Notes: generated by a model not told the origin, from the sequence alone. 64,000 nucleotides of DNA from an uncultured Anaerolineae bacterium (GCA_964481205.1 CAYZYE010000002.1:3532-67531); one strand, 5' to 3'; shown: positions 2,692 through 44,044, counted from the first letter of the stretch. Made by a program: numbers and translations.

Positions 2692-2697
2692 GCATTT

Positions 2698-2726: not shown

Positions 2727-2769
2727 GTGTCCTACAACAGTCCCGCTTTCCTGAGATCAAGAGGCACCG

Positions 2770-12163: not shown

Positions 12164-12226
12164 TCGAATCCAGTGGCTACCCTGGGGGAGCTGATCGAGA
12201 TCATCCAGCCATTTTGGGAGCGCCAG

Positions 12227-13444: not shown

Positions 13445-13495
13445 TCTCGCCCCTACTGAAACACAACACACCATATTCCATTGAGGAGCATCACG

Positions 13496-14320: not shown

Positions 14321-14371
14321 TCCACTCAGACTCTGGTTCACGCCTGACCCAGTCGATCCTGGAGTGCATAC

Positions 14372-15160: not shown

Positions 15161-15195
15161 TGGGGCTGTTTGGTGGGCCTTGCCGCGCGCCGTGC

Positions 15196-15810
15196 TTATT
15201 CTTCGATCCCCGCCAAATCGATCGCTGTGGCCGCAATCGGCGCCAAAGTTGTCAACATCTCTAAATCTCTGGCGTCAAAGGGCTGCCCGGAGAACTTGTT
15301 GACCACTTCGATCACGCCCAACATGATCCCGCGACTGATCAACGGCACGCAGGCCAAAGACTGGGTGCGAAATTGAAACGTACTGTCAACGGTCGACGAA
15401 AAACGCTCATCCTGAACAATGTCGTTGGCAATCACCGGCTCGCGATGCTCGACCACCCAGCCGGCGATCCCTTGCTCCCGCCGCATGCGGTGTCCTTGCA
15501 ACTTGGCCGCAAGCACGCCGCGAACCAACACAAAAACCAACTCGTCGGTATCGGGATCGAGCAAAATCAAAGACCCATCGGCCGCATCGACCACGCGCAA
15601 GGCCTCATACATGATCCGGTCCAACAAAGGCTGAAGCTGCTCTCGCGTATCCAAATTGGCAATCACCTGCTGCAACCCACGCACCGACTTGAGACAACCG
15701 CGCAAAGCGGCATTCTCTTCATCCAACTCTTGATTGTCTTGCTGCAACCGTTGATTTTCATCTTGCAGAAAACGCAATGTGGTAGACACAGCGCCAATGC
15801 CATCTGCCAT
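15196..15810 (-). CDS. GAF-domain protein with an N-terminal coiled coil
   Basis: GAF-like core. The start was set at MADGIG so the gene abuts the stop of the amidase gene. Confidence 0.65.
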   Translation of the reverse strand: MADGIGAVSTTLRFLQDENQRLQQDNQELDEENAALRGCLKSVRGLQQVIANLDTREQLQPLLDRIMYEALRVVDAADGSLILLDPDTDELVFVLVRGVLAAKLQGHRMRREQGIAGWVVEHREPVIANDIVQDERFSSTVDSTFQFRTQSLACVPLISRGIMLGVIEVVNKFSGQPFDARDLEMLTTLAPIAATAIDLAGIEE

Positions 15811-15811
15811 C

Positions 15812-16618
15812 TCAGCCTCCCTGTCGATACGTCCCCTCGATAAAACACTTGATCCCGTTGACAATGCCCGTCGCCACCCAAGCCGACCTTTTTGTCAACA
15901 AAACCCGGTCGGCGCGCATAAACCCAATCTCTATGATCGCGCCCGGCGTCTCGGGCGCAATTTCATAAAAAGCATGATATTCGGTCATATCATACGTAAT
16001 ACTGTTCTGGTGAAATGGAAGCCCTGTTGCTTCCTGATACCTGGCGATCAAACAAGAAACCAGGCGATCCTCGATATCGGGCACCAGGCTGGATGAAACC
16101 CGCGCCACCTTGAAACCCGACGCCTCGGCCACATTGCACGAATCGGCGTGAATCGAAACCAAAGCCGCGGCCTCGTACCCGTCCAGTTTGGGCGAAAACT
16201 CGGCCAACATTTCGGCATTGTACCCCGAAAGCGCCAGTTGAGAAACGACACGCTGGGCGACGTCGAGATTGATCTCGACCTCTTGCAGCCCATCCGGGCA
16301 AACAGCGCCGACATCGTTCTGCCAGTGTCCAACCACAATGCCGATCTTGAGCGGCCGCTGCTGCGCGGCAACCGAGGTTTGGGTCCTGGCCGGCAACGGG
16401 GTCATCAATGGCACGGCGGTCGGCGCCGGGATCATCGGCTGCGGCGTTTTCAGCGCCACCAACTGCGTCGCCGTCATCGAGTCGGCCACAGCCGCCGGAT
16501 TCTGCACCATCCAGGCCACGCGCAAACCCAAATAAATGATCGCCAGCAAGACAACAACCAGCGCGGCAATCAAAATCCGCTGCACGCCCTCGAGCATATT
16601 TCGACGAATCAACGACAT
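15812..16618 (-). CDS. N-acetylmuramoyl-L-alanine amidase (Amidase_3 family) with an N-terminal TM anchor
   Basis: Amidase_3 signature segments (KIGIVVGHWQND..., SIHADS, IEIGFM). Confidence 0.8.
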   Translation of the reverse strand: MSLIRRNMLEGVQRILIAALVVVLLAIIYLGLRVAWMVQNPAAVADSMTATQLVALKTPQPMIPAPTAVPLMTPLPARTQTSVAAQQRPLKIGIVVGHWQNDVGAVCPDGLQEVEINLDVAQRVVSQLALSGYNAEMLAEFSPKLDGYEAAALVSIHADSCNVAEASGFKVARVSSSLVPDIEDRLVSCLIARYQEATGLPFHQNSITYDMTEYHAFYEIAPETPGAIIEIGFMRADRVLLTKRSAWVATGIVNGIKCFIEGTYRQGG

Positions 16619-16645
16619 CTCTCAACCTGACCCCAATAAAAGGCT

Positions 16646-17779
16646 CTATTGTCCGGGCAAAAACGAAATTGGATTGCGCAAAACGCCCTTGTACCTTATC
16701 TCGAAATGCAAATGCGGCCCGGTCGAACGACCGGTGCTGCCGCGCGCGCCGATCAGCTGCCCGCGCTCGACCGACTCACCGGCATTGACATAAAACCCGT
16801 ACAAATGCGCGTAATATGTCACAAACCCATTTCCATGATCGATGACCACCAGATTGCCGTAACCATTGCTGTCCCAGGCGGCGTACATGACCACCCCGGC
16901 GTCCGAGGCAACGACGCCTTCGCCGTGCGCGCCGGCAATGTCGATCGCCCGATGAAGCTCCCAGTATCCCTGCGAAATATACCCGCCGGTCGGCCAAACC
17001 CAGTTGCCCGTCCCATGCTGGGCATCGGCAGGCGCCGAACCGCCAAAAGAATGGTGCAAACGCGGCTCGAACGTCTTGACGCCGCCGGGCACGATCAGCT
17101 TTTGCCCCGGCTCAACCAGCGGAGCGTCCGAGTCCAGACCATTGTACTCGCAATCGACGATCGCCGACGCCGGAACCTGATAGCGGGAGGCAATGTCGGC
17201 CAACGTTTCGCCGTCCGCAACCGTGTGATAAACGCCATCCACGGGCAAGATGGTCAATTCCTGCCCCGTATAGATCAAATCAGGTGCCTCTTCCAGCTCG
17301 TGATTGGCCCACAGCAGCGTGTTCGGTTTCAACCCAAAACGCCCGGCAATGGTCAAAAGATTGTCGCCGGCGGCCACGGTATAGGTGATCACCCCTTTGC
17401 GCGCGCGTTCCGGGATGATCGTCTGCGGCACCGCCGCAAGGAACAACCGCTGAACCAGGGTCACGCGGACAGGGGCAGCCGGAAGCGGTCGCTCGGCCTG
17501 CGTGCGCAGTTCTACCTTGCGTCCCAAACCATGCACATCCAGCGACGGCGTGCTAGTAGCCTGCTGTGTCGGCGCCCCGGTCGGATAAGCGACGTCAACG
17601 GGCGGCAAAAGCCGGGTCAGGTCAAGCCTGGGCCACATCACGGCGCACGCGATCAATAAAAGCAGGCCAATATGAAAAAATCCACGCGCCAGCAAAGGAT
17701 AAAAGGCAGACCTCATCCCCCGCAAGCGCGTGTTGAGCCAATCGAGACCGGCATAAAATGGCGGTTTACGCTCCACCAT
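16646..17779 (-). CDS. LysM-domain M23 family metallopeptidase
   Basis: Two LysM-like segments plus an M23 motif (HRAIDIAG...GYGNLVVIDHGNGFVTYYAHL...GSTGRSTGPHLHFEI). Confidence 0.85.
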   Translation of the reverse strand: MVERKPPFYAGLDWLNTRLRGMRSAFYPLLARGFFHIGLLLLIACAVMWPRLDLTRLLPPVDVAYPTGAPTQQATSTPSLDVHGLGRKVELRTQAERPLPAAPVRVTLVQRLFLAAVPQTIIPERARKGVITYTVAAGDNLLTIAGRFGLKPNTLLWANHELEEAPDLIYTGQELTILPVDGVYHTVADGETLADIASRYQVPASAIVDCEYNGLDSDAPLVEPGQKLIVPGGVKTFEPRLHHSFGGSAPADAQHGTGNWVWPTGGYISQGYWELHRAIDIAGAHGEGVVASDAGVVMYAAWDSNGYGNLVVIDHGNGFVTYYAHLYGFYVNAGESVERGQLIGARGSTGRSTGPHLHFEIRYKGVLRNPISFLPGQ

Positions 17780-17798: not shown

Positions 17799-19082
17799 TT
17801 AGACCGCCCCCTTGTTCAACATTGCCAAAAATTCGGCATTGTTTTCGGTGCTTGATATCCGATCGATCAAAACAGAGGTCGCATCGGCCATATCATACCC
17901 GGCGCCCTTTGGAGGCGATGTCATCAATTGAGCCAACATCCGTCTCATTAACCATACCCTAGATAGGGTACTTTTGTCAAGTAGCAATTCTTCACGCCGG
18001 GTGCTGGAACGGTCAATATCAAAAGCAGGATAAATCCGGCGCTCGGCCAGGCGCCGATTCAGATGCAACTCCATGTTGCCCGTACCCTTGAACTCTTCAT
18101 AGATCAGATCGTCCATGCGGCTGCCGGTATCGACCAGACAAGTCGCCACGATCGTCAGACTGCCGCCCTCCTCGATGTTCCTCGCCGCGCCGAAAAAATG
18201 CTTGGGCGGATAAAGCGCCGCCGGGTCCATACCGCCGGACAGGGTGCGCCCGCTGGGCGGGACAATCATATTATAAGAGCGCGTCAGGCGGGTGATCGAA
18301 TCCAACAAAATCACGACATCGCGCCCATCCTCGACCAACCGCTTGGCGCGATTCAAAGCCATTTCGGCGACGCGCACATGATCGCGCTCCGGCTCGTCAA
18401 AAGTCGAGGCCACAACCTCGGCGTCGACAGAGCGATCCATATCGGTGACTTCTTCGGGGCGTTCGCCGATCAGGCAGACCATCAAATGCACGTCATTATA
18501 ATTGGCCGTAATGCCATTGGCAATCTGTTTCAAGATCATCGTCTTGCCGGCTTTGGGCGGCGACACGATCAGCCCTCGCTGACCGCGGCCAATCGGCGAC
18601 ACCAAATTGATCATCCTCGGCGCGATCGGGTGTTTTCCCGTCTCCAAATCAAACCGCTCGTCGGGAAAAATGGGGGTCAACCGCTCGAAACGTGGACGTC
18701 GCTTGGCCTCTTCGGGGTCCAGGCCGTTCACCGCGTCGATGCGCAACAGGCCAAAATACTTTTCCGTGTCTTTGGGCGGGCGCACCTGACCGATGACCAT
18801 ATCGCCGGTGCGCAGACCAAAGCGCCGAATCTGGGACTGCGAGACGTAAATATCTTCCGAAGAGGGCAAAAAACCTCTGGGGCGCAAAAAACCCAGGCCT
18901 TCATCCACAACATCCAGGATACCGCCGCCAAAATTGTATCCCTGCTGTTCGGCCTGGGTGCGCAGCAAGCGCATAATCAAATCATATTTTTTGAGCCGGC
19001 TAAAGCCCGAAGTGCCCATCTCGCGGGCCAGATCGCGCAAATCTTGTAATGTTTTTAAATCCAATTCACCAAAGGATAACAT
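17799..19082 (-). CDS. rho: Transcription termination factor Rho
   Basis: Full-length match to Rho architecture with a Walker A motif ([11 protein letters not shown]). GGAG RBS. Confidence 0.95.
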
Positions 19083-20265
19083 AAAACAACTCCATACTAA
19101 TTGGCGGTCACGGTCATTGCGAACCCGCCGTACCGCGCCATAACTTCAAAAAAACAGGAACGCCAAAACGTGATCGGGCGCACCGCGCCCAACAAAGTCT
19201 CAATGGGGATAACTTGGCTGTGGCTAACGAGTTTTTTCTTGGAGCAAATTTCAACTTTTGGCTCTCTAATCCCTGACTTGGGTCAACAACCCGGCCCAAG
19301 ACAATGAAAACCATGATTGTTTGAAACGTCAGGAAGGCTCTGTTGGTTCCGGTTTAGTTGGGTCAGGCTTTGAGAACCAAAACGGGGCTGAGTCAAAGGG
19401 GCTTGCCTGGATCAAGATTCGCAGATTCTGCCATTCAAGAAAACCGCCTGGAAAAAAGTAGGATGTCGCAGAATGCTGCAATTTGCAAGAACGCAAACAG
19501 GTATCGTATAATGCCTGTATTATATCATCTTTTCCAAGACACGTCAAATGTCTATTATTTTTCTCAAAATAACACCAATTTCATCTCCCGCGCCAGAACC
19601 CACCGGCGAAATCAGGTTTACTTAACTTGCCTTAAATTTTGACCGGGTTTGCAACGCGCTGCAAACCGCTTCTCGCTCGTAGCTGTAGGTTATATTGGTA
19701 AAAAAAATCGAACATGTGGTACTAGAAACATCAAGGCAACACCGAGCGGGTGAAAACAACTTGCCAACTCGAAACGATTTTGCTACAATACACACGTTCA
19801 TCTCCTGAGCGTCTAGCCACCTGACCTGGACAAACCAGCCGGGCACATGCCCTAACTCTCAAATGTCCCTGTGCGCAGCGACATCTGCTGCATCAAGGCC
19901 TGAGAATTTGGGCGCTGTTTTATTTCTTGCATTACATCTGACAACCTTGTTTCGACGGCTCAACCTCATCGCTTTGGGCTAGGTGGCGAACGAGAATTCA
20001 GTGTATTGCCTCTTGTGCCGTTCTGGTGTAACCTCTCAATACAAGCTCATTTGGCCTGTGTACCTAACCCGTGAGATTTGTCTTTTGCGATAATTTTTCG
20101 CCCGACTTGACCGGGGCAGGTTCGCAATGAACATTCAACCACAGCAATGCGCCACACGACCACCGCAAGATCGGCGGGGCAGCGATGATTTTGCCCTGTT
20201 CGTCTGGCCTGCATCGAGTCTTTTATATCCAGGGGAGGAAAAGACAACCTTGTACCGGGAGCAAA
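19083..20265. promoter_or_regulatory. Candidate oriC / dnaA upstream region
   Basis: 1.2 kb with no coding potential between rho and dnaA. DnaA-box-like 9-mers TGGGGATAA and TGTGGCTAA lie at 19203-19225. An AT-rich stretch at 19500-19620 is a possible DUE. Promoter-like TTGCAA-18-TATAAT (19482-19511) and TTGCCA-17-TACAAT (19761-19789). Confidence 0.4.
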
Positions 20266-21657
20266 ATGATGGAAAACGCAAATAAGGTCTGGCAAGCAGC
20301 ATTGGGCGAGTTGGAACTGCAAATGACCAGGGCGACATTCAATACCTGGCTGAAACCGACCAAGGTTGTTGCCTATGACCAGGACAATCTCGTACTGGGG
20401 GTCCCCAACGGATACATCAAAGATTGGTTGGAAAATCGTTTGTATACCCCGATCCAGCGCACCGTGTCTGGCATTCTCGCCAAGCCCATCGACGTCCAAT
20501 TCATCGTCTGGCCTGACGAACAAGGGATCGAGCAGACAGATGATTTGCCGCTGCTGAACAACGAAAACACCACCCACACCGACTTGATGCAACCCGGCCC
20601 GGCCAACGGCAATGGGCATAAAACCAACGGCAACGGACACGCCTCACTCAACCCCAAATACACGTTCGACACCTTTGTCGTCGGCTCCAGCAACAGGCTT
20701 CCCCACGCCGCCGCGCTGGCCGTCGCCAACTCGCCGGCACAGGCCTACAACCCGCTCTTTTTGTACGGCGGCGTTGGCCTGGGAAAAACACACCTCTTGC
20801 ACGCCATCGGCCACAGCTGCCAGGCGCGCAACCTCAAAGTGCTGTACATCTCTTCGGAGCAATTTACCAACGACCTGATCACGGCGATCCGCACTCAGGA
20901 TACAGAAGCGTTCAGGAACAAATATCGCAACCCCGATGTCTTGCTCATCGACGATATTCAATTCATCGCCGGCAAAGAGAGCACGCAAGAAGAGTTTTTT
21001 CACACTTTTAACACGTTACACGCCGCAAACAAACAAATTGTATTGACCAGCGACCGCCCGCCCAAGGCCATCACCACCCTCGAAGAACGTTTGCGCTCGC
21101 GTTTTGAATGGGGACTCGCCGCCGATATTCAACCGCCAGATTTGGAAACCCGGATCGCGATTTTGCAGTTCAAAACCAGAGATCAGGGCTATGCGGTGTC
21201 GGAACAGATCATCAACCTCATCGCACAACAGGTCGTCAGCAACATCCGCGAGTTGGAAGGCGCACTCAACAAGATCGTCGCCTATGCGGACTTGATGCAG
21301 GTCACGCCAAGCGCAGAAACGCTCGAAATCGCGCTGCGCGACCTGGTTGCAGCGCCCAAAACGCTCACCACCTCTTTGGTGCTCAGCGCCGTAGCCAAAT
21401 TTTACCAGGTCAGCGAAGACGCGATCCGTGGACGAAAGCGCAACAAGGACATTGTCCGCCCCAGGCAAGTGGCAATGTACTTGATGCGCAAAGAAACCAA
21501 CTCGTCGCTGCCGGACATCGGCGCGGCGCTGGGAGGACGCGACCACACTACCGTGCTCTATGGAGTTGAAAAAATCAACGGCTTGCTCGAACAAGACAAC
21601 ACACTCAGAAGGCAAGTCATGACCATCCAGGACGTACTTTATCACAAAGCCAATTAG
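20266..21657 (+). CDS. dnaA: Chromosomal replication initiator DnaA
   Basis: Canonical DnaA N-terminus, AAA+ domain (GGVGLGKTHLLHAIG) and C-terminal DNA-binding domain. Confidence 0.95.
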   Translation: MMENANKVWQAALGELELQMTRATFNTWLKPTKVVAYDQDNLVLGVPNGYIKDWLENRLYTPIQRTVSGILAKPIDVQFIVWPDEQGIEQTDDLPLLNNENTTHTDLMQPGPANGNGHKTNGNGHASLNPKYTFDTFVVGSSNRLPHAAALAVANSPAQAYNPLFLYGGVGLGKTHLLHAIGHSCQARNLKVLYISSEQFTNDLITAIRTQDTEAFRNKYRNPDVLLIDDIQFIAGKESTQEEFFHTFNTLHAANKQIVLTSDRPPKAITTLEERLRSRFEWGLAADIQPPDLETRIAILQFKTRDQGYAVSEQIINLIAQQVVSNIRELEGALNKIVAYADLMQVTPSAETLEIALRDLVAAPKTLTTSLVLSAVAKFYQVSEDAIRGRKRNKDIVRPRQVAMYLMRKETNSSLPDIGAALGGRDHTTVLYGVEKINGLLEQDNTLRRQVMTIQDVLYHKAN

Positions 21658-22364
21658 GCGTTTCCAGAAAAATAACTACCCTGCGTTGCTCTCGCCAGAT
21701 TTGGCAATCCAAGCCGCGCATTCTGGAATAATTTCAAGAGTTATGCGGTTTGTGTTTGAGCCTTTCTAGAACGAAACTTGGGTAATCTGTCATTCTGAGC
21801 CAGCCGTCGCAGGCGGCGCAGTGAAGAATCTTGTGGCTTGAATTTGACATACAAAAAGAGATTCCCTTCGACTGCGCTCAGGGCAGACTTTGTCGCTCCG
21901 CTCCTCACAATGACGGTCCCAGAAAAGTCTTGCTCTAGTACCAGAAAGTCCCAACCATCGAGTTATTGGATAGAACGAGTTGTTTTTTGATATATTTCAG
22001 GCGCAAAACGCCCTCTATGACTCGAACCGCGTAACTCCGGCCAAGATTATCACGCTTGCAATGTGACTTTCTGGCTTGGCGTTTCTATTTGATGCAAGGA
22101 TACCATAGGCATACTGGATACACACCCAACGTGGTTCGGATTAAGGCTGCTCTAGCCGCGTAATCCAAACCGGGCACCCCGCGAAATCCTCCCAGGAGAC
22201 CGCTGAAAAACCCAAGATTAACCAATGACGCAGAGATCATCTTGTATTTGCAAATATCAACAATACTACTCGATGTTTTGTTTCTTTGCGTTCTCTGCGG
22301 TTGGCGGATGCACTGGGAGTTTTTCAGCACACTCTCAGGTCGCTTGACCGGCAAGGACAAGATA

Positions 22365-23159
22365 ATGGTCAACCCACTACCCCATCTCGAAAATTTGGCC
22401 GAGCGATTGGTCGAAGGCACCATCGCCCGCATGCTGGGCGCCCAGGTGCAGCCGCTCGAGGTGGCGCGACGCATTGCGCGAGCCATGGAAGACGGCCAGG
22501 TGATCAACCCCCAGGGCGAGATCGTCGTCCCCAACGAATACCACGTTGCTCTGCACCCCAAAGACCTGTCAGCGATGAACCGATTCCAAGACGCCCTCGA
22601 AACCGAATTGACCCAATACATCTCGAACCTGGCGCGTCAGGCCGGCGCGACAATGGTCGGTCGCCCGCGCGTGACCATCGCCGCGAACCCGGCCACGCCC
22701 TTGAAACATGTGCGCGTGACGGCCCAAGTGGTCAGCGCGCGTCATGGCGCCATCGACGTCACCCACACGCAAGAAATGCCCGCCGTGGCCGCGCTCGCCC
22801 GCGACATCCCTGCTTTTGTCCTTTATGACGGCTATCGACGCATGCCGATCAACGAGGCCATCGTCACCATTGGCCGCAGCCTGGACAACGAGATCATTTT
22901 GGACGACAAACGGGTTTCGCGCCAACACGCGCAACTTCGCCGCCGATACGACCAATACGTACTCTATGACCTCGACTCGACGGGCGGCACCACGGTCAAC
23001 GGCCTGCGCGTGCGAGAGGCCGTTCTACAGCCCGGCGATGTCCTCGCCTTTGCCGGGGTCAAAATCCGGTTCGAGCATACGGCCACGCCATTCGTGCCCA
23101 AAGAAGAACTGGCCTCCGGCGCAACGCGAATCTTGCCTCCCAGAGGAACGCACAAATGA
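22365..23159 (+). CDS. fhaA: FhaA-like protein: DUF3662-type N-terminal domain plus C-terminal FHA
   Basis: Architecture and FHA motif (TIGRSLDNEIILDDKRVSRQHAQL...GTTVNG). The start is ATG 22365 after an AAGGACAAG RBS. Confidence 0.8.
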   Translation: MVNPLPHLENLAERLVEGTIARMLGAQVQPLEVARRIARAMEDGQVINPQGEIVVPNEYHVALHPKDLSAMNRFQDALETELTQYISNLARQAGATMVGRPRVTIAANPATPLKHVRVTAQVVSARHGAIDVTHTQEMPAVAALARDIPAFVLYDGYRRMPINEAIVTIGRSLDNEIILDDKRVSRQHAQLRRRYDQYVLYDLDSTGGTTVNGLRVREAVLQPGDVLAFAGVKIRFEHTATPFVPKEELASGATRILPPRGTHK

Positions 23160-23605
23160 CCGCCAACCTATCCATTTTACTGCTGCGCATCTTGTCCGCA
23201 GGACTCTTGTACGCTTTTTTGACCGGCGCGGTGATCATAATATGGCGCGATTGGCGCGCCGTCGCCCGGCAAATGGAACGCAAAGGCGAAACGGCAACAC
23301 GCTCGCTGGGGCGGCTGATCGTCGTTCGCGCCGGCAAAACACAGCTGATCCAGGGCGAGGCCATCCCCCTGAACGTCATCACCCGCCTGGGACGCGCGCC
23401 GGCCAACACGGTTGCCATTCAAGATGCGTTTGCCTCCTCGGAACACGCCCTGCTTGCTTTGCGCAATGGCCGGTGGTGGCTACAAGACCTGAACAGTCGC
23501 AACGGCACACTGCTCAACGAAGAAAAATTGACCGCCTCGGCCATCGTGTCAACCGGCGACGTGATCGGCATCGGCGAGGTCAGATTGCGAATCGATTTAG
23601 GATGA
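23156..23605 (+). CDS. fhaB: FhaB-like membrane-anchored FHA domain protein
   Basis: One TM helix then an FHA domain (GRAPANTVAIQDAFASSEHALL...SRNGTLLNEEKL). The ATG overlaps the fhaA stop. Confidence 0.75.
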   Translation: MTANLSILLLRILSAGLLYAFLTGAVIIIWRDWRAVARQMERKGETATRSLGRLIVVRAGKTQLIQGEAIPLNVITRLGRAPANTVAIQDAFASSEHALLALRNGRWWLQDLNSRNGTLLNEEKLTASAIVSTGDVIGIGEVRLRIDLG

Positions 23606-23617
23606 AAAAGGAGCAAA

Positions 23618-24499
23618 TTGATGAACCCCATACCCAACGCCATCATTGGCGGCAGCGGACTGTACCAGCTGGAAGGCCTGACCGGCGTCCAGAAGCTCGA
23701 CATTGACACCCCGTTCGGCAAACCCTCCGACACGATCATTGCCGGCCAATTGGATGGGATCGGGGTGGCCTTTTTGCCTCGCCACGGGCGCGGGCACCGC
23801 ATTTCGCCCACCGAACTGCCCGCGCGAGCCAATATCTGGGCACTCAAAAGCCTGGGCGTCCAGCGGATCATTGCCAGCAGCGCGTGCGGCTCGCTCAAAG
23901 AACAAATCGCCCCGCGCCACATCGTCATCCCCGACCAACTCTACGACCGCACGCGCCACCGCCGGCCGCACACCTTTTTCGATGGCGGCATCGTCGCCCA
24001 TATTGGCTTTGCCGAACCGTTTTGCCCCACGCTGCGCCAAATTCTGATCGACGGCGTTCAGGCGGCCGGGGCCATCGTCCACGACGGCGGAACGATGGTG
24101 GTGATCGAAGGCCCCCAATTTTCCACCAAAGCCGAATCCAACATTTACCGCCGCCTGGGCTTTGACACCATCGGCATGACCGCCCTGCCAGAGGCCAAAC
24201 TGGCCCGCGAAGCCGAGATTTGCTACGCCTCGATGAACCTGGTCACAGACTATGACGTGTGGCGCGCCGGACACGACCAAGTCACAGTCGAAATGGTGAT
24301 CGCCAACATGCAGGCCAACCTGGAAACGGCCAAAAACATCATCCGCTATGCCCTGCCCAAAATGAACGCCCTCGACGCCGCACCCGCTTGCGGCTGCCCG
24401 AACGCGCTGGCCGGGGCGATCATTACCCACCCGGCGCACATTCCGGCGCACAAAAAAGAGCAGCTCGGGCTGCTGATCGAAAAATATGTCCACGACTAG
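23618..24499 (+). CDS. mtnP: S-methyl-5'-thioadenosine phosphorylase (purine nucleoside phosphorylase family 2)
   Basis: MTAP-type motifs (IIGGSGLY, LPRHGRGHRISP, VIEGPQFSTKAESN). Confidence 0.85.
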   Translation: MMNPIPNAIIGGSGLYQLEGLTGVQKLDIDTPFGKPSDTIIAGQLDGIGVAFLPRHGRGHRISPTELPARANIWALKSLGVQRIIASSACGSLKEQIAPRHIVIPDQLYDRTRHRRPHTFFDGGIVAHIGFAEPFCPTLRQILIDGVQAAGAIVHDGGTMVVIEGPQFSTKAESNIYRRLGFDTIGMTALPEAKLAREAEICYASMNLVTDYDVWRAGHDQVTVEMVIANMQANLETAKNIIRYALPKMNALDAAPACGCPNALAGAIITHPAHIPAHKKEQLGLLIEKYVHD

Positions 24500-25814
24500 C
24501 GCCATCGAGACGCCGGGCGTCTCCACGCGACAACGTCATATCCGATGGGGCGAGTTGAGCCTGCTCATTTTGGCGCTCTTGTTCATGCTCACCGGCTTTG
24601 TCACCCTGTCCCTGGTCGAACAAAAACAAGTCACGCCGCGCTATATCGCACCGACAGTCGTCTTTGGCACGCTGGCAACCATCGCCTGGGCGACGTTGAA
24701 CTGGCGACTGCCCAACCACGACGCGCTCTTGTTCCCGATCACAATGTTATTGTGCGGCTGGGGGCTGGTCGAAGTCGCGCGCCTGCAAGAAACCTTTTTG
24801 CCCCGGCAGCTGATCTGGGTTTGCGCGGGTGTGACCGTCATGACACTCATCGCTGCGCTGCCTTATCGTTGGTATTGGCTCGACCGCTACCGCTACTTGT
24901 GGCTGTTTGGCGGGCTGGGCTTTTTGGCGCTTACCGTCATCTGGGGCGTCAATCCGCTGGGCGCCGGCGACCGGCTGTGGTTGAGCGTAGGCCGGCTGTT
25001 CTACTTTCAACCCTCCGAATTTCTCAAAATCGCGCTGGTCATCTTTTTAGCCAGCTATCTGGCCGAAAAACGCGAGTTGCTCGTTCTCACCCACATGCGC
25101 GTTGGCCGATGGCGCTTGCCGCCGCTGCCTTACCTCATCCCGCTGCTGCTGATGTGGGGATTCTCACTGCTGCTGTTGGTCTGGCAGCAAGACCTGGGCG
25201 CGGCGATGCTCTTTTTCGGCGCCTTTTTGTCCATGCTGTATGCCGCGACCGAGCGCCAACTGTACGTCGCCATCGGGCTAGGCATGCTCGTCCTGGCCGC
25301 GATTGCCGGATACGCGCTGTTCGATCGCGTGCAGCTGCGCGGCGACATCTGGCTCGACCCCTGGGCCGACCCACGCGGCAACGCCTACCAGATCGTCCAA
25401 TCGCTGCTGGCCTTTGCCAGCGGAGGCGTGCTCGGCGCCGGCGTCGGCCTGGGACACCCCACCCCCTATATCCCGGTCGTCCACACCGACTTTGTCTTTG
25501 CCGCCATCGGCGAAGAATGGGGTTTGCTCGGCGGCGTCGGCGTGATCTTGGCGCTGCTGCTGCTCGTGACGCGCGGTTTGCGGACGGCCATGCGCGCGCC
25601 GACGCCATTCACCGCATTGTTGGCCGTCGGCCTGGCCTCGCTGTTGGGTTGGCAAAGCCTGATCATCCTCGGCGGCACGCTGAAACTAATTCCTCTGACC
25701 GGCATTACCCTGCCTTTTGTCAGCTATGGCGGCAGTTCGATGCTGATCGCTTGCGCGATGGTGGGACTGTTGCTCCGCGTCTCCGGGCATAGCGACACAG
25801 GAGCACAGCGATGA
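24486..25814 (+). CDS. rodA: SEDS family peptidoglycan glycosyltransferase (RodA/FtsW)
   Basis: Ten hydrophobic helices and the SEDS C-terminal block (IPLTGITLPFVSYGGSSM). Overlaps the mtnP end. Confidence 0.85.
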   Translation: MSTTSAIETPGVSTRQRHIRWGELSLLILALLFMLTGFVTLSLVEQKQVTPRYIAPTVVFGTLATIAWATLNWRLPNHDALLFPITMLLCGWGLVEVARLQETFLPRQLIWVCAGVTVMTLIAALPYRWYWLDRYRYLWLFGGLGFLALTVIWGVNPLGAGDRLWLSVGRLFYFQPSEFLKIALVIFLASYLAEKRELLVLTHMRVGRWRLPPLPYLIPLLLMWGFSLLLLVWQQDLGAAMLFFGAFLSMLYAATERQLYVAIGLGMLVLAAIAGYALFDRVQLRGDIWLDPWADPRGNAYQIVQSLLAFASGGVLGAGVGLGHPTPYIPVVHTDFVFAAIGEEWGLLGGVGVILALLLLVTRGLRTAMRAPTPFTALLAVGLASLLGWQSLIILGGTLKLIPLTGITLPFVSYGGSSMLIACAMVGLLLRVSGHSDTGAQR

Positions 25815-27229
25815 ACCGCCGTCCCGTGGGGCTGTCGCGCGCCATCGGCCAACTGAACGCCGTGCTGACGGTTTGTTTTGTCCTGATGACCGTGGGTTTG
25901 GGCTACTGGGGATTGGTCCGCGCGCCGGCATTGATCGAACGCGACGACAACCCGCGCAAGATTGAAGACGAACGCCGCATCCGGCGGGGCGACATCCTCG
26001 ACCGGCGCGGCCGGCCGCTGGTGCGTAGCCAGGCAGGGGCGTTGGGCACCTGGGAACGCATTTACGCGGCCCCCGCCGCTGCGCCGGTGGTCGGCTATTA
26101 CTCGATCAATCACGGCACCGGCGGCATCGAAAGCGCGTATGACACCAGCATTCGCGGCGAACGCGCCCTCGGCCCCATCCAACAACTCGAGGCCAACCTG
26201 CTGCACCTCTATTCTGCCGGCGTCAGCGTGACCCTGACCCTCGATCTGGCGCTTGAGCAAACCGCCGACCACTCTCTCGGCGAATGGCCGGGCGCCATCG
26301 TGCTGCTCGACGTGCGTAGCGGCGACATTTTGGCGATGGTCAGCCACCCCACGTTCGATCCAAACACGCTAGAGGCGGACTGGCCGCAGCTGCAATACGC
26401 GGCCAATAACCCGCTGCTCAACCGCGCCGCGCAGGGATTGTACCCGCCCGGCCTGATCTTTCAGACGATCACCATGGCGGCGATTATGGAAGAAGGATTG
26501 GCCGGACCAACGACAGTTTTCACCGACCGGGCCGGCGTGATCATGACCGTCGATCCGCCCATCGCCTGCCCGGACGACCCGCCCAGGACCCGGTTCACCC
26601 TGTTCGAGGCCTATACCTGGCCGTGCAACGTGTTGTTTGCCCGCCTGGGGCTGGAAATGGGCGGCGAAAAACTGGCCGATTTTGCCACGCGCCTGGGCGT
26701 TGGGCTCCCCGTCGATTTGCCCATCCCGGTCGCGGCCGGTCAAATCCTCGAACGCGGCATCTGGAGTGACTTGCTTGCCGCGCGCACGGCGATGGGCCAA
26801 GGCGAATTGTTGGTCACGCCGCTCGAAATGGCGCTCGTCGTCGCGACGATTGCCAATGACGGCGCGCGTCCCGCGCCGAGGCTCGTCCTCGACGTCGGCG
26901 GGGAGCCGGGCGCGCCCCCCGGAGACCCCCATCCGGCGCTGGATGTCAAGGTCGCCCAACAGCTCCAAACCATTTTGAGGCAAGCGTTTGCCGTGGGCTA
27001 TCCGGGCGCGTCAGCGATCGACATCGCCGGGCGGGGCGGGACAGCAAAAAGCGGCCGCGCCGGAGCGCCGCCGCACGCCTGGTTTATCGGTTTTGCGCCG
27101 AGCCGGCAGCCGCGCTATGCGGTCGCCGTCATCGCCGAGCACGGCGGCGACGGGTGGGCCGTCGCTGCGCCGATCGCGGTCCAAGTGCTGGGTCAGGCCA
27201 TCCAGGAACAGGCAAAAACAACGCCCTGA
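25811..27229 (+). CDS. pbpA: Penicillin-binding protein 2-like transpeptidase (PbpA-type)
   Basis: N-terminal TM anchor and a transpeptidase domain. Class B PBP. ATGA overlap with the rodA stop. Confidence 0.85.
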   Translation: MNRRPVGLSRAIGQLNAVLTVCFVLMTVGLGYWGLVRAPALIERDDNPRKIEDERRIRRGDILDRRGRPLVRSQAGALGTWERIYAAPAAAPVVGYYSINHGTGGIESAYDTSIRGERALGPIQQLEANLLHLYSAGVSVTLTLDLALEQTADHSLGEWPGAIVLLDVRSGDILAMVSHPTFDPNTLEADWPQLQYAANNPLLNRAAQGLYPPGLIFQTITMAAIMEEGLAGPTTVFTDRAGVIMTVDPPIACPDDPPRTRFTLFEAYTWPCNVLFARLGLEMGGEKLADFATRLGVGLPVDLPIPVAAGQILERGIWSDLLAARTAMGQGELLVTPLEMALVVATIANDGARPAPRLVLDVGGEPGAPPGDPHPALDVKVAQQLQTILRQAFAVGYPGASAIDIAGRGGTAKSGRAGAPPHAWFIGFAPSRQPRYAVAVIAEHGGDGWAVAAPIAVQVLGQAIQEQAKTTP

Positions 27230-27295: not shown

Positions 27296-29377
27296 TTACT
27301 GCCCCAGCGCCTCCAGCGCCTCCTCGCGGCGATTGATCGCCCACTCGTAATCGCCGTCGATCTCGATCGCGCGATCAAAGGCCATGATCGCCTCTTGATA
27401 GCGCTGCGCGTCGACCAACAGTTGCCCCTTGTGCGCATAGGCCCAACTGTACTGATCGTCGAGCAAAATGGCCTCGTCAAACGCGGCAATGGCTTCATCA
27501 TAACGCGCTTGCAGGCGCAGCGTTTCGCCCTTTTCAGCCCAAACCCAGGGCAAAGTCGGATCCACCTCGGTGGCCCGATCCAGAGCGGCTATGGCGTCCG
27601 TCAGACGCTCCAGTTGCCGGAGCGTCTGACCAATACTGCCCAGCGCCCAGGCATAGCGCGGCTGCAAGTCGATGGCCCGTTCAAAAGCCGCCAGCGCCTC
27701 CTCGTACTCGCCGGTCTGGCGCAGCGTTTCGCCCTTTTGCGCCCACACCCAGGACATTTGATCATTCAACTTGATGGCCTGGTTCAGCGCCACCAGCGAT
27801 TCCTCATAACGGTTGGTATGGCGCAGCGCAAGCCCCAGGTTGCCCCAGGCCCAGGGATAATCTTTATCCAGGCTAACCGCCTGCTGAAACGCCTCGACGG
27901 CCTCTGGATAACGCTTGAGCAGCCGCAAACTCTCGCCTTTTTCACCCCAAATCCAGGCGATGGCGCTGTCGGCCTGGATCGCCCGCTCGATGGTCTCGAC
28001 CGCCTGTTCATATTGCTCCGACATGCGCAGGGCTTGAGCCATACTTCCCCAGGCCCAGGCATAATCTGGGTCCAGCTCGACCGCACGCCGAAAAGCCGCA
28101 ATCGAATCATCATACCGTTCCATTTGACGCAGTGTTTCCCCTTTGGAACCCCAGGCCCAGGCATAGTCCGCGTCGAGTTCAATCGCCTCGACCAATGCGG
28201 CCAGCGCATCCTCGTAACGTTTGGCCTGTCGCAGCGCCTCGCCGCGATGCGCCCAAGACCAGGAATAATCGCGCCGGATCTCGAGGGCGCGCGCAAAGGC
28301 GTCCTCGGCCTGATCAAAGTCCCCATTTTGGCGATACGCCTCGCCCAAATGCGCCCAGGCCCAGTCGTTGTCCTGAACCAGCTGCACCGCGCTTTGAAAA
28401 GCGGCGATCGCTTGATCATAGCGACCCAATTCACGCAGGGCTTCGCCTTTTTCGGCCCAGACCCAACTTTCCGGATCGAGGGCCAGGGCGCGTTCGAGCG
28501 GTGCCAAAGCTTCCTGGTATCGATCTACCTGGCGATAGGCCTGCCCCAGGCTGGCCAGCGCCCAGGCATAGTTGGGGTCAACGGTAATGGCTTCCAAAAA
28601 GGCGGCGATCGCTTCATTAAAGCGGTCCAGTTGGCGCAACGCCTCGCCTTTGCTGGCCCATGCCCAGGCATATTGGGCATCGACGGAAACAGCGCGGTCC
28701 AGCGCCTCGACCGCCTCGTCGTATTGACCGGCCACCCGCAACGCCTCGCCCTTGTGCGCCCACGCCCAGGCGTAATCGGGGTCCAGCTCGATGGCGTGAT
28801 CGAACGCCGCCATCGCCTGGTCATAACGCCGCGCCTGGGTCAACGTCTCGCCCTTTTCTGCCCAGGCCCAGGCATTGTCCGGCTCGGCGCTCAATACCTG
28901 CTCGAATACATCCAACGCATCTTCAATTTGCCCATTTTGACGCAGCGCCTGCCCTTTGCTCGACAGCGCCCAAATGTTTTCGGGGTTGATTTCGATGGCC
29001 AGATCAAAATATTCGAGCGACTCTTGATAGCGCCCCATCTCACGCATCGACTCGGCGAGATGCGCCCAGGCCCACTCGTATTGGGGATCGATCTCGACCG
29101 CGCGTTGAAAGGAAGAGATTGCGCGCTCGTATTGGCCCGCCTCGCGCAGCGTCTCGCCGCGATGCGCCCAGGCCCAATCGTATTTGGGATTAAGCTCCAA
29201 AGCGCGATCAAAGGCCGAGACGGCCAAATCGTATTGGCCTTGCTCGCGCAAAGACTCGCCGCGCCTGGCCCAATCTTGGGCAAACTGTGCGCTGTGCCCC
29301 GCCGAAAGGATATTCAAATGCGCCTTGACTGACTTGGGTGATTTTGGTTTAGACCACTTGTCTACCTGACCGGTCAT
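27296..29377 (-). CDS. Tetratricopeptide repeat protein with ~20 highly regular TPR units
   Basis: 34-aa repeats of the pattern D..YAWAWA.KGEAL...RY.EA..AFD.A.ELDP. The start is at MTGQVDK with an AGGAGA RBS. The ORF extension further upstream runs into the MITE. Confidence 0.85.
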   Translation of the reverse strand: MTGQVDKWSKPKSPKSVKAHLNILSAGHSAQFAQDWARRGESLREQGQYDLAVSAFDRALELNPKYDWAWAHRGETLREAGQYERAISSFQRAVEIDPQYEWAWAHLAESMREMGRYQESLEYFDLAIEINPENIWALSSKGQALRQNGQIEDALDVFEQVLSAEPDNAWAWAEKGETLTQARRYDQAMAAFDHAIELDPDYAWAWAHKGEALRVAGQYDEAVEALDRAVSVDAQYAWAWASKGEALRQLDRFNEAIAAFLEAITVDPNYAWALASLGQAYRQVDRYQEALAPLERALALDPESWVWAEKGEALRELGRYDQAIAAFQSAVQLVQDNDWAWAHLGEAYRQNGDFDQAEDAFARALEIRRDYSWSWAHRGEALRQAKRYEDALAALVEAIELDADYAWAWGSKGETLRQMERYDDSIAAFRRAVELDPDYAWAWGSMAQALRMSEQYEQAVETIERAIQADSAIAWIWGEKGESLRLLKRYPEAVEAFQQAVSLDKDYPWAWGNLGLALRHTNRYEESLVALNQAIKLNDQMSWVWAQKGETLRQTGEYEEALAAFERAIDLQPRYAWALGSIGQTLRQLERLTDAIAALDRATEVDPTLPWVWAEKGETLRLQARYDEAIAAFDEAILLDDQYSWAYAHKGQLLVDAQRYQEAIMAFDRAIEIDGDYEWAINRREEALEALGQ

Positions 29378-29437
29378 TGGGTCTCCTGTACAACACATGG
29401 TGAAAAGCGCCAAACTTGAGATCAGTACAGGGCTGTT

Positions 29438-29600
29438 CAATTCTAATGTGTGACTAAAGTCACCGCTGGCGGGCTGAAGCCGGGCGTCCCACCTGCGTGG
29501 ACGCCACCGTCGGCGGGGCCTCGTCGCCGTAGGGGGACGACCAGCCAACGGCTCGCCAAGCGCGGTTTCAACCGCTGGATTGTAGAATTGAACAGCCCTG
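29438..29600. mobile_element. MITE-like repeat, family 1, copy 2 (long form with an internal GGCGTCC...GGACGCC hairpin)
   Basis: Same TIRs as copy 1. Flanked by a 9-bp direct repeat AGATCAGTA on both sides. Confidence 0.75.
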
Positions 29601-31181: not shown

Positions 31182-32864
31182 ATGAACTGGAAACGACTGT
31201 TCCTGGTTGTCTGCTTGCTGGGCGCACTGTTTGTCGGTGCCGCCCCCAAAGCGGCAGCGCAGGCCTATCGATTCACGGTCGATCGCAACATATCGCACGT
31301 CTACGCCAACAGCGACGGCTCGGCCACCATTGAATACGCCCTCACTTTTAGCTGCGCCCCCGGCGCGCACCCCATCGACATCATTGACGTTGGGCTGCCC
31401 AACAACAGCTATGACCTCGACTCGGCCCAGGCCTGGTTTAGTCCTGGCGCCGGCGGAGAGAAACGACACGCACTGACGAAAATCTATAAATCGTCCGAAG
31501 TCGCGATCGGCGTCGAAGTCCACCTGGGACAATACACGATCAAACCGGGCAGCCAGGGCACGCTCATGTTCCGAATCACGGTCAGGGAAATGGTCTATGC
31601 AGACAGCAAAGACCAGGATTACGCCAGCCTCGAATTTGCGCCCACATTTTACGGCAAAAAATACACCCGGGGCGAAACCTACCTCGAAATCAACTTGCAC
31701 TTTCCCCCCGGCTTGAGCAAAGAAGAACCGCGCTATCACAAGGAACAATATCACAAAGCAACAGTGCAAGACGGGCGATTCGTGTTCACCTACATCTATC
31801 CCAACGCCACCGGTTATGAAACCCACCGGCACGGCATCTCGTTCCCGCGCAAATATGTGGACAAGGTCTACAAAGCGCCGCTAATGATCGGCGGACGCCC
31901 CTTTGACGAGTGGGTCAACATTGTAGTCGAAAAGATCAGCGGCTTTACCTGTTTTGGCGGCATGGTGCTGTTCTTTATCCTCTCATCGGCGATCAGCGCC
32001 GCGCAAAGCAAAAAGCGCAAGATGAAATACCTGCCCCCGGCGCTCTCGGTCGAAGGCGTGGGGATCAAACGCGGCCTCACCGCCGTCGAAGCCGCGATCT
32101 TGCTCGAAACGCCGCTCGACAAAGTGATGACCATGATCCTGTTCGGCATCCTCAAGAAAAAAGGCGTCGTCGTCCTGAGCGAAAACCCGCTCAAACTGGA
32201 AAAGGTCGAGCCCGCGCCCAAAGTCAAATGGCGCGACTATGAAACGACCTTTTTGGAAAGCATCAAAAGCAACGGCAAACTCGACGAGAAAAAACTGCAA
32301 AAAATGGTCGTCGCCTTGATCAAAAACCTCAACAAAAAACTCAAAGGCTTTAGCCGCAAAGAAACGGTCGATTATTACAAAACCATTGTCGATCGCGCGT
32401 GGAAACAGGTTCAGGCCGACACCACGCCGGAGGTCAAATCCAGGCACTTTGATCAGGGACTAGAGTGGATGATGCTCGACAAGAACTTTGACGAACGCAC
32501 CGAAAAAACCTTTCAAAGCGGGCCGGTGTACATGCCGCCCTGGTGGGCCTATTACCGCCCCTGGCGTTCGCGCGTCAACACGTCGCGCATCGGCGGCGGA
32601 ACGGGGTCGCCCGGTCGCAGCGGCGGCAAAGCAGTGACCCTGCCCACTTTGCCCGGCTCGGCCTTTGCCGGCGCCATCGTCAGCGGCATCGAAACCACCG
32701 CCGGCGGCATCGTCAGCAAAGTAGAAAACTTTACCGGCGGCATCACCAGGCGCACCAACCCACCGCCGGTCAGCTCGAGCGGCGGCGGCAGCAGCTCTGG
32801 TGGATGCGCTTGCGCTTGCGCCTGCGCCGGATGCGCCTGCGCCTGCGCCGGTGGCGGGCGGTAA
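31182..32864 (+). CDS. Signal-peptide-bearing membrane protein with a DUF2207-like layout, ending in a Gly/Ser-rich tail with a (Cys-Ala)n repeat (GCACACACAGCACACAGGGR)
   Basis: N-terminal signal peptide and a central TM helix. The tail is encoded by a (TGCGCY)n hexanucleotide repeat at 32806-32850. GAGGAG RBS. Confidence 0.6.
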   Translation: MNWKRLFLVVCLLGALFVGAAPKAAAQAYRFTVDRNISHVYANSDGSATIEYALTFSCAPGAHPIDIIDVGLPNNSYDLDSAQAWFSPGAGGEKRHALTKIYKSSEVAIGVEVHLGQYTIKPGSQGTLMFRITVREMVYADSKDQDYASLEFAPTFYGKKYTRGETYLEINLHFPPGLSKEEPRYHKEQYHKATVQDGRFVFTYIYPNATGYETHRHGISFPRKYVDKVYKAPLMIGGRPFDEWVNIVVEKISGFTCFGGMVLFFILSSAISAAQSKKRKMKYLPPALSVEGVGIKRGLTAVEAAILLETPLDKVMTMILFGILKKKGVVVLSENPLKLEKVEPAPKVKWRDYETTFLESIKSNGKLDEKKLQKMVVALIKNLNKKLKGFSRKETVDYYKTIVDRAWKQVQADTTPEVKSRHFDQGLEWMMLDKNFDERTEKTFQSGPVYMPPWWAYYRPWRSRVNTSRIGGGTGSPGRSGGKAVTLPTLPGSAFAGAIVSGIETTAGGIVSKVENFTGGITRRTNPPPVSSSGGGSSSGGCACACACAGCACACAGGGR

Positions 32865-32892
32865 ACATTACATATCGTAAAGGAGCGATCCA

Positions 32893-34260
32893 ATGTCTAT
32901 CCTTTCTCAACTCAAGCGATTTTTTACCTCGGAACAGCCGCTCGAAAAAGCCATGTACCAATATCGCACCCCGCCCGACGCCGAGGAACGTTTTCGGCTG
33001 CATCTGCGCGTCGAAGCAGACGGCACCGGCATCCTGGTGATCAACGCCTCCAAAGTGCTGCACCTCAACCAGACGGCCACCGAAATGGCAAAAATGATCC
33101 TCGAAGAACTGCCCGCCGAACAAGCCGCCAAACAAATGGCCCGCCGCTACCGGGTCACGCAAGCGCAGGCGCTGGCCGATTACCGGTCACTGCACGACAA
33201 AATCTTTGTCCTGAGCCGCACCGACGAGGTTTGCCCGATCACCTACCTCGATGTGCAGCGCATCGACCCTTTCAAAACCCCCGCCTCGGCGCCCTACCGG
33301 ATGGACCTGGCCCTCACCTATGCCTGCAACGACAACTGTGCGCACTGTTATGTGGCCCGCCCACGCGATTTTCCAACCATGAGCGTGGACAAGTGGAAAA
33401 AGGTGATCGACCGCTGCTGGGATGTGGGCATTCCGCACATCACCTTTACCGGCGGCGAAGCGACACTCTATCCGGGACTGCGCGAACTGGTCGAATACGC
33501 CGAGGATGTGGGACTCGTAACCGGCCTGCTGACCAATGGGCGCAAACTCGCCGACCGCGCCTACCTCGACGGGCTGATCGAGGCCGGCCTCGATCACGTC
33601 CAAATCACCCTCGAATCGCACGACGAGGCAATTCACGACCGGATGGTCGGCGCCGAGGGCGCGTGGCAAGAAACGATGGCCGGGATCAAAAACGCCGTCG
33701 ATGCCGACATTTACATGATGACCAACACCACCCTCACCGACCTCAACGCGCCCACGATTGAAGACACGATCGACCTGCTCGCCGGACTGGGCGTACCCAC
33801 CGTCGCCTGCAACGGCCTGATCTTTGCCGGCAAAGGCGTCGACGTCGGCATCGGCATCCCCGAACACGACCTGGAACCGATCATGGCCCAGGTGCAGGCA
33901 CGAGCCAAGGCGCACGAACTGCGCCTGATCTGGTACACCCCCACCCGCTACTGCGAGTTCAACCCGTTGGAACACGACCTGGGCGTCAAAGGCTGCTCGG
34001 CGGCAAAATACAACATGTGCGTCGAACCAAACGGCGACGTGCTGCCCTGCCAGAGCTATTTCCAAAGCATGGGCAACATCCTCACCGACCCGTGGGAGAG
34101 CATTTGGAACAGCGCGCTGGCCAACTCGATCCGCAACCGCGACTGGCTGCCCGACGAATGTCTCGACTGCCCCGACAAAGAAATCTGCGGCGGCGGCTGC
34201 CCGCTATATGCCGCCGAAGGCGAATACCAATGCCGCGACAGCCAGAACACGGCGGGGTGA
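32893..34260 (+). CDS. Radical SAM / SPASM-domain enzyme with an N-terminal PqqD-like RRE domain (RiPP-maturase-like)
   Basis: CxxxCxxC motif (CNDNCAHC) about 145 aa in. C-terminal Cys-rich SPASM region (CLDCPDKEICGGGCP). The N-terminal 100 aa resemble PqqD/RRE (KVLHLNQTATEMAKMILEELP). AAAGGAG RBS 28 nt after the upstream stop. Confidence 0.85.
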   Translation: MSILSQLKRFFTSEQPLEKAMYQYRTPPDAEERFRLHLRVEADGTGILVINASKVLHLNQTATEMAKMILEELPAEQAAKQMARRYRVTQAQALADYRSLHDKIFVLSRTDEVCPITYLDVQRIDPFKTPASAPYRMDLALTYACNDNCAHCYVARPRDFPTMSVDKWKKVIDRCWDVGIPHITFTGGEATLYPGLRELVEYAEDVGLVTGLLTNGRKLADRAYLDGLIEAGLDHVQITLESHDEAIHDRMVGAEGAWQETMAGIKNAVDADIYMMTNTTLTDLNAPTIEDTIDLLAGLGVPTVACNGLIFAGKGVDVGIGIPEHDLEPIMAQVQARAKAHELRLIWYTPTRYCEFNPLEHDLGVKGCSAAKYNMCVEPNGDVLPCQSYFQSMGNILTDPWESIWNSALANSIRNRDWLPDECLDCPDKEICGGGCPLYAAEGEYQCRDSQNTAG

Positions 34261-43947: not shown

Positions 43948-44044
43948 CAGAATCCTCCCCCTCCCACCCACACGCAGATATGTGCCTCCCACCAGCTACC
44001 ATTTTAACACGTTCTGATGTTAAATTCAAGCAGCACTTGCGCAA

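Follow-up and report, generated by a model that had tools for sequence, protein, structure and literature searches.

An Anaerolineae fhaA-fhaB-mtnP-SEDS-pbpA operon encoding a predicted catalytically dead PbpA-type protein

We analyzed a 64,000-nucleotide (nt) stretch of DNA from an uncultured Anaerolineae bacterium (GCA_964481205.1 CAYZYE010000002.1:3532-67531), referred to here as the window, and focused on a five-gene cell-wall cassette at positions 22365-27229. The cassette encodes two forkhead-associated (FHA) proteins, a methylthioadenosine (MTA) phosphorylase (MTAP), a SEDS peptidoglycan polymerase, and a PbpA-type penicillin-binding protein of class B (bPBP). Genes were assigned by Pfam and NCBIfam profile searches and junctions were read straight from the DNA, which confirmed the order fhaA-fhaB-mtnP-SEDS-pbpA and the overlaps described in the original prediction. 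The five genes are:

22365-23159, + strand: fhaA, FhaA_N (DUF3662) plus FHA domain with a short linker, 264 aa; an AAGGA Shine-Dalgarno sequence lies upstream
23156-23605, + strand: fhaB, one N-terminal hydrophobic helix plus FHA domain (FipA/FhaB architecture), 149 aa
23621-24499, + strand: mtnP, S-methyl-5′-thioadenosine phosphorylase, 292 aa; alternative TTG start at 23618
24486-25814, + strand: SEDS peptidoglycan polymerase, FTSW_RODA_SPOVE (PF01098), RodA/FtsW family, 442 aa
25811-27229, + strand: PbpA-type bPBP, PBP_dimer_2 plus Transpeptidase domains, 472 aa

The genes are tightly packed, with a widest gap of 15 nt and three overlaps. ATGA overlaps join fhaA to fhaB (23156-23159) and the SEDS gene to the bPBP gene (25811-25814). 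The fhaB stop at 23605 is followed by a 15-nt spacer carrying an AAGGAG Shine-Dalgarno sequence and then by the mtnP ATG at 23621; the mtnP stop codon (TAG, 24497-24499) falls inside the SEDS open reading frame (ORF), 14 nt of overlap counted from the SEDS ATG at 24486, and mtnP is co-operonic with the SEDS gene as had been proposed. For fhaA we preferred the start at 22365, since its homologues all begin M-x-NPL; the public annotation uses the ATG at 22308 and gives a protein of 283 aa. Promoter- and terminator-like matches were judged against shuffled-sequence expectation, and none inside the five-gene block exceeded it, including any that could give mtnP a promoter or terminator of its own. 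Three features delimit the block, and 66 nt separate the bPBP stop from the end of the convergent downstream gene:

20185-21657, + strand: dnaA, the upstream boundary of the operon
21658-22364, + strand: noncoding leader of 707 bp between dnaA and fhaA, with one sigma-70-like match at 21967-21996
27296-29548, − strand: convergent TPR-repeat gene, the 3′ boundary of the operon and no member of it

The 707-bp leader is the only possible place for an operon promoter, and the sequence suggests that the five genes probably form one operon transcribed from this dnaA-fhaA gap. Because both ends of the operon lie inside the window, pstP and pknB cannot adjoin it in the same transcription unit; their presence just outside the window in the same operon, which had been raised as a possibility, is excluded by dnaA and the TPR gene.

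The last gene of the operon encodes a protein that has kept the architecture of a PbpA-type bPBP and lost its catalytic motifs. It matches PF21922 (35.4 bits, cut-off 27) and PF00905 (142 bits), and its best sequence match is Mycobacterium tuberculosis PbpA (3LO7/3UN7; phmmer, 1.5e-38). In the alignment to PbpA, all three active-site motifs are degenerate:

26453-26464, + strand: degenerate SxxK, L215-I-F-Q218, aligned to S-T-F-K of PbpA; the nucleophile Ser is replaced by Leu and the Lys by Gln
26621-26629, + strand: degenerate SxN, P271-C-N273, aligned to S-C-N of PbpA; Ser is replaced by Pro
27032-27040, + strand: degenerate KTG, R408-G-G410, aligned to K-T-G of PbpA

The protein has no acylation serine, general-base lysine, or SxN serine and neither the lysine nor the threonine of KTG, and judged from its sequence this bPBP is catalytically dead. 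The fold was checked with an AlphaFold2 model (pLDDT 94.9, pTM 0.91, helix at residues 8-42) and a Foldseek search against the PDB, in which the top matches were PbpA structures (TM scores of 0.76-0.84, ∼31% identity). The membrane anchor, the PBP_dimer_2 domain (PBP-A dimerization/pedestal), and the transpeptidase (TP) fold are all retained.

We compared the locus with 80 loci, one genome per species, scanned with an FhaA profile of the Anaerolineae type. Almost all carry one of the titles Anaerolineae, Anaerolineales, Thermoflexales, Ardenticatenales, Aggregatilineaceae, or Chloroflexota, and their FhaA identities span 35-70%; neighboring genes were mapped by tblastn, and the full 10 kb downstream is present in 36 of them. 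Degenerate motifs were found in 28 of 29 cluster bPBPs, which either read YQPG-x-A-[LF]-[QE], ACPAPF, and GHxG or resemble the window protein; only L017 keeps all three motifs. A homologue census in 5.8 billion proteins gave the same picture for close relatives: none of the 64 full-length homologues at 53-68% identity retains any of the three motifs, while 39 homologues at 39-48% identity keep them all. A third homologue group reads PPGA[TI]FN, YGCN, and GK[VA]G. In L009 (15823-16950), and also in L010 and L018, ∼100 residues that include SxxK and SxN are replaced by GELEE-type low-complexity repeats; the L009 repeat allele keeps KTG and the reading frame, and these three are sister species of L017. 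Neighbor-joining trees with midpoint rooting, from which the catalytic columns were left out, contain three separate dead clades, one of them nested among active sequences, with the L009 deletion allele as a further case. The sequences thus suggest that the bPBP was inactivated independently at least three times, an approximate count given the tree method and rooting. Public names of the dead proteins include "penicillin-binding protein 2," "peptidoglycan D,D-transpeptidase FtsI family protein," and "peptidoglycan glycosyltransferase," which are probably functionally wrong for this clade.

Loss of the motifs has not been accompanied by general erosion. Mean pairwise identity in the dead clade is 0.64 for the TP domain vs. 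0.60 for the N-terminal domain, compared with 0.54 vs. 0.48 in the active relatives. The active relatives have 69 columns with conservation of at least 95%; the dead clade keeps 49 of these, and the 10 lost ones include S215, K218, S271, N273, K408, T409, and T411. Because conservation of the TP domain matches that of the N-terminal domain, the conserved columns are mostly kept, and the fold is predicted with high confidence, the protein does not appear to be decaying; the pattern of sequence conservation points to purifying selection that acts on the bPBP fold and not on catalysis.

The SEDS partner, by contrast with the bPBP, appears intact. It matches PF01098 at 258 bits, and alignment to FtsW (8BH1) and RodA (6BAR/6PL5) places the conserved W, QPSExxK, DLG, HTDF, and LPFVSYGGSS in the protein. 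One codon marks the catalytic motif on the DNA:

25488-25490, + strand: Asp codon of the SEDS HTDF catalytic motif

These motifs recur in 34 of 35 orthologues, and with all glycosyltransferase motifs kept, the protein is predicted to be an intact polymerase. The original prediction had called the gene rodA. Its assignment to the SEDS family holds; as to the subfamily, TIGR02614 (ftsW) scores slightly better at 261 bits (cut-off 337.5) than TIGR02210 (rodA) at 221.5 bits (cut-off 336.7), both below cut-off, and the best PDB match is FtsW. The names "RodA" and "elongasome" are therefore used for this unit by analogy only.

Both FHA proteins also look intact. FhaA matches PF12401 at 92.6 bits as well as PF00498 and keeps the phosphothreonine-binding residues G170 R171, S185 R186 H188, and N212, which are invariant in the homologue alignment. 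In FhaB, the GR...SSEH...NG phosphothreonine-binding residues were read from the sequence, and the FhaB_Rv0019c model scores 78 bits, below its cut-off of 125 bits. FhaA and FhaB are thus predicted to be intact phosphothreonine readers, and a Thr kinase encoded elsewhere would be needed to supply their ligand. The window holds one Ser/Thr kinase, ∼15 kb from the operon and unlinked to it:

42049-43992, − strand: Ser/Thr kinase (Pkinase plus PD40 beta-propeller, without PASTA), the only kinase in the window

Its PD40 domain in place of PASTA agrees with the earlier description, with the coordinates as given here, and it is a candidate trans-acting kinase for the FHA proteins, no more.

Phosphatase and PASTA kinase genes are missing from the cassette, as had been claimed: scans of the operon and the window recover the FhaA/FhaB/SEDS/PbpA core of the actinobacterial cluster without PP2C or PASTA kinases. 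Pfam scans of ∼45 window ORFs contained no PP2C. A phmmer search of stop-to-stop ORFs in the window and 92 loci, using two seeds that Pfam confirmed as PP2C_2, gave nothing better than E = 0.037; the searched DNA held no positive control. No PP2C was seen in any of the 80 loci or recurred among 96 insert ORFs of the related loci, and only 3 of the 80 have a kinase close to the cluster; ten independent contigs, judged by their precomputed Pfam labels, likewise point to a cluster that lacks both. The lack of pstP and pknAB is, as far as these sequences indicate, a trait of the whole lineage and not of one genome.

Synteny follows a recurrent order, fhaA-fhaB-[variable insert]-mtnP-SEDS-bPBP, in species representatives of several Anaerolineae orders. 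The fhaB gene follows fhaA in 77 of 80 loci, and among the 36 loci with 10 kb downstream, a same-strand MTAP is present in 25, SEDS in 21, and bPBP in 19. The gap between fhaB and mtnP is below 150 nt in only 11 of 41 loci and otherwise holds 0.6-7 kb of variable cargo: a short-chain dehydrogenase (27 loci), an unknown membrane protein of ∼500 aa (12 loci), a GNAT protein (8 loci), CHAT/NB-ARC/TPR proteins (∼8 loci), or a CoA-transferase (6 loci). The compact form seen in the window also occurs in loci with the most distant FhaA, at 35-39% identity (L077, L078, L080, L083, L089, and L091). Adjacency of the cluster to dnaA is not conserved in the relatives. Comparison within Anaerolineae therefore upholds a recurrent cassette without pstP and pknAB, and it does not uphold mtnP as a local insertion.

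Relatives with an active bPBP are informative about the order of events. In L173, L174, and L176, mtnP-SEDS-bPBP occurs without fhaAB nearby, and in L175 (6412-11867) and L177 (6403-11972), fhaA-fhaB-SEDS-bPBP is followed by purB (adenylosuccinate lyase) and mtnP is absent. No PP2C or kinase was found in the contexts of L173-L177. These contexts suggest that the link to mtnP and the missing cluster kinases predate the loss of catalysis and are independent of it.

The mtnP product is by sequence an ordinary, catalytically complete MTAP. It scores 314.6 bits against TIGR01694 (cut-off 274.85), its PDB matches are MTAPs (1e-78 to 1e-68), and it keeps GGSG, RHGRGH, SACGSL, GPQFST, GMT, and TDYDVW, so that the phosphate-, ribose-, and base-binding motifs are present; the catalytic motifs are invariant in the orthologue alignment. 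It lies <400 nt before the SEDS gene in 25 of 29 pairs, and pairwise identities of FhaA, MTAP, and SEDS covary (Mantel r of 0.81-0.89, 0 of 2000 permutations). The original prediction had mtnP inserted into the cassette. Its recurrence in 25 of the 36 full-length loci, including loci with the most distant FhaA, its presence in trios that lack fhaAB, and the covariation of identities argue instead for an old, vertically coinherited member. Linkage to SEDS as a general property of MTAPs was considered and rejected: in an MTAP-anchored metagenome control, SEDS lay next door in 4 of 49 MTAP loci (52-66% identity, enough downstream DNA), and most metagenome MTAPs at 52-61% identity had neither a SEDS nor an FHA neighbor. 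The control scan indicates that the mtnP-SEDS linkage is lineage-specific.

Several smaller observations concern the slot between fhaB and mtnP. An adh_short gene directly follows fhaB in 27 of 80 loci (e.g., L065:1745-2539 and L004:11372-12190) and is absent from the window; Table 1 of PMC11898655 lists two short-chain dehydrogenases among the FhaA interactors of Mycobacterium smegmatis. Large CHAT/NB-ARC-like/TPR inserts of the STAND type occur at L017:2258-4786, L069:3377-6481, and L009:11257-13457 and in L071, L074, and L079. In one locus the same slot holds an MreB/Mbl gene.

The closest known counterpart is the actinobacterial fhaA-fhaB-pstP-rodA-pbpA-pknA-pknB cluster, which is described as conserved throughout Actinobacteria or Mycobacteriales (PMC6554272, PMC11898655). 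Like the M. tuberculosis Rv0020c-Rv0014c cluster, the window operon has fhaA, fhaB, one further gene, SEDS, and a PbpA-type bPBP in order on one strand with overlapping stops and starts, and it shares the FhaA_N plus FHA and transmembrane plus FHA architectures, the PBP_dimer_2 pedestal, and proximity to dnaA. Unlike that cluster, it has mtnP in the PstP slot, no PknA, PknB, or PASTA domain, a short-linker FhaA (264 aa), and a dead bPBP; it is a stripped version of the actinobacterial cluster rather than a member. M. tuberculosis PbpA (3LO7, 3UN7, and 3UPN-3UPP) has the same two-domain layout and is the best match in both sequence and structure; however, it reads S-T-F-K, S-C-N, and K-T-G and is acylated by β-lactams (PDB titles), where the window protein reads L-I-F-Q, P-C-N, and R-G-G. 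MtnP resembles characterized MTAPs (TIGR01694; RsfP 4GLF, Aeropyrum 1WTA, and human 1CB0) in equivalog score and motifs and differs from them in genomic context only. In the literature, which was partially covered, we found neither an Anaerolineae or Chloroflexota version of the cluster nor any account of MTAPs linked to SEDS or of bPBPs that are motif-dead by nature.

The explanation that we consider probable, by analogy with engineered proteins and from the sequences described above, is that the pseudo-bPBP serves as an allosteric or scaffold partner of the SEDS polymerase. Such a bPBP would be unable to cross-link peptidoglycan or to bind β-lactams covalently and would be retained as a noncatalytic activator or scaffold, possibly also as a stem-peptide binder, with cross-linking left to enzymes encoded at other loci. 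FhaA and FhaB would couple the synthase to Thr phosphorylation by kinases and phosphatases, which would act in trans because none is found in the cluster in this lineage, and mtnP would be a conserved, coexpressed housekeeping gene. The "differently wired control" of the synthase suggested in the original prediction is a plausible proposal. Engineered TP-dead bPBPs, namely Clostridioides difficile SpoVD S311A and Bacillus subtilis PBP2b, still support their SEDS partner (PMC12713402; summarized in PMC12516126) and are needed as allosteric SEDS partners while another PBP provides cross-linking (PMC12713402, PMC12516126). Those are laboratory point mutants of active enzymes, whereas the loss seen here occurred in nature, extends to all motifs, has become fixed across clades, and has several apparent origins.

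A number of points weigh against this explanation. The activator role is extrapolated from engineered Firmicutes mutants, and the reading of the bPBP and operon draws on sequence and predicted structure. That other transpeptidases, PP2C, and PASTA kinases are encoded elsewhere is an assumption made from 64 kb of genome, and the PP2C negative depends on the two seed sequences, run with no positive control, and on Pfam labels that had been precomputed for a few loci. The count of inactivations is only as good as neighbor joining and a midpoint root allow. Finally, some relatives have Ser at the nucleophile position (PPGSIFQT), but they lack the Lys, SxN, and KTG.

Among the alternatives, a bPBP that still acts, through noncanonical residues, as a transpeptidase or another acyltransferase seems barely credible: three motifs are altered together, most of the clade has Leu, Val, Ala, or Pro in place of the nucleophile, and the uneven substitutions (L/V/A/P/Q/S at 215, Q/E at 218, and R/Q/Y/W at 408) speak against a new fixed catalytic set, even though the fold and many pocket-lining residues are kept, Ser stands at position 215 in a few members of the clade, and the window protein retains N273. 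Repeated loss of catalytic residues, the internal low-complexity replacement in one lineage, and, in L027 and L035, the nearby presence of another, distant SEDS gene could instead mark the cassette as a decaying remnant of an actinobacterial-type cluster that has already lost pstP and pknAB, with the bPBP becoming a pseudogene and another SEDS-bPBP pair making the wall. We regard this as very unlikely, given full-length ORFs in >90 independent sequences, TP domain conservation that equals that of the N-terminal domain, a bPBP start translationally coupled to SEDS, and invariant SEDS catalytic motifs. The dead TP domain might also be a sensor of stem peptides or muropeptides that gates SEDS, replacing the extracellular PASTA sensing delegated to PknB in the actinobacterial cluster. 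An extracellular fold conserved under selection while catalysis was lost and the absence of PASTA kinases from the cluster across the lineage would fit such a sensor, which we nonetheless hold to be unlikely: it is a purely inferential reading, overlaps the allosteric or scaffold explanation except in the role of the domain, and faces the fact that active-bPBP lineages also lack cluster kinases, so that loss of catalysis and loss of PASTA are uncorrelated.

A further question is whether mtnP is functionally coupled to wall synthesis, clearing MTA or 5′-deoxyadenosine, supplying adenine with wall growth, or being an FHA or phosphorylation target. Its place directly 5′ of SEDS persists across deep divergence while the surroundings are shuffled; the mtnP-SEDS-bPBP trio survives without fhaAB and also when on the other strand (L066); MTAPs of like sequence distance elsewhere rarely adjoin SEDS; and in the sister architecture the bPBP is followed by purB, a further adenine-nucleotide gene. 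Against this, no biochemical link between MTA salvage and SEDS/bPBP is known, MtnP looks like a plain MTAP, and housekeeping genes travel in RodA-PBP2 operons elsewhere. In the E. coli rsfS-rlmH-mrdA-mrdB operon, unrelated housekeeping genes are cotranscribed with the RodA-PBP2 pair, although that operon differs from the one described here in its passenger genes and gene order, encodes an active bPBP, and has no FHA proteins. We rate a coexpressed passenger or housekeeping gene above direct functional coupling, which seems rather unlikely.

SEDS-bPBP pairs are core bacterial wall synthases and β-lactam targets, and whether the essential role of the bPBP is catalytic or allosteric has so far been approached only through point mutants engineered in a few model species. 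With a dead bPBP that arose naturally and repeatedly, is conserved, and stays translationally coupled to an intact SEDS polymerase, evolution would have run the experiment that answers this question, and SEDS activation could be studied in a clean system without transpeptidation. More broadly, and tentatively, in a large part of Anaerolineae SEDS may work with a pseudoenzyme bPBP of at least three origins whose job is noncatalytic; cross-linking would be outsourced to other PBPs or L,D-transpeptidases, and the synthase would be blind to β-lactams, read by FHA proteins without a cluster kinase or phosphatase, and welded to MTA salvage, which hints at metabolic input. The cassette is a lineage trait that places the FhaA/FhaB-SEDS-PbpA module outside Actinobacteria without the phosphatase and PASTA kinases, and it exposes an unexplained, strongly conserved link between an MTA phosphorylase and a wall polymerase; the repeatedly evolved pseudotranspeptidase is its surprising part.

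Upstream of the operon, Rfam and tRNA scans of the dnaA-fhaA gap were empty and no meaningful repeats were found there. An oriC in this gap was considered and rejected, as DnaA-box matches are not enriched and none lies within 21658-22364. GC content falls to 0.52 around rho and dnaA (18000-22400) vs. ∼0.63 elsewhere in the window, and the interval between rho and dnaA contains two near-consensus DnaA boxes (19204-19227); if the origin is local, a position upstream of dnaA is more likely than one in the 707-bp gap. A conserved gene 5′ of fhaA was likewise rejected, being present in the closest relatives only, without a Pfam family, and not in the window.

Elsewhere in the window, 12173-17779 is an FHA-rich neighborhood with wall hydrolases. 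It contains double-FHA proteins at 12173-13444 and 14372-15160, an FGE-sulfatase-domain protein at 13481-14320, a GAF protein, an Amidase_3 protein at 15812-16618 (− strand), and a LysM-M23 peptidase at 16646-17779 (− strand), after which comes rho at 17799-19082 (− strand). Four consecutive genes for large membrane proteins of ∼790-860 aa occupy 112-10080, three of them with PMT_2-type glycosyltransferase domains and one without a Pfam family. At 31182-34260, a radical-SAM/SPASM protein whose N terminus is PqqD-like comes after a 560-aa ORF that has no Pfam family; together they look like a peptide-maturase locus. An ordinary ribosomal-protein operon tail with truA, rpoA, S11, methionine aminopeptidase, and secY lies at 52637-63419 (− strand).

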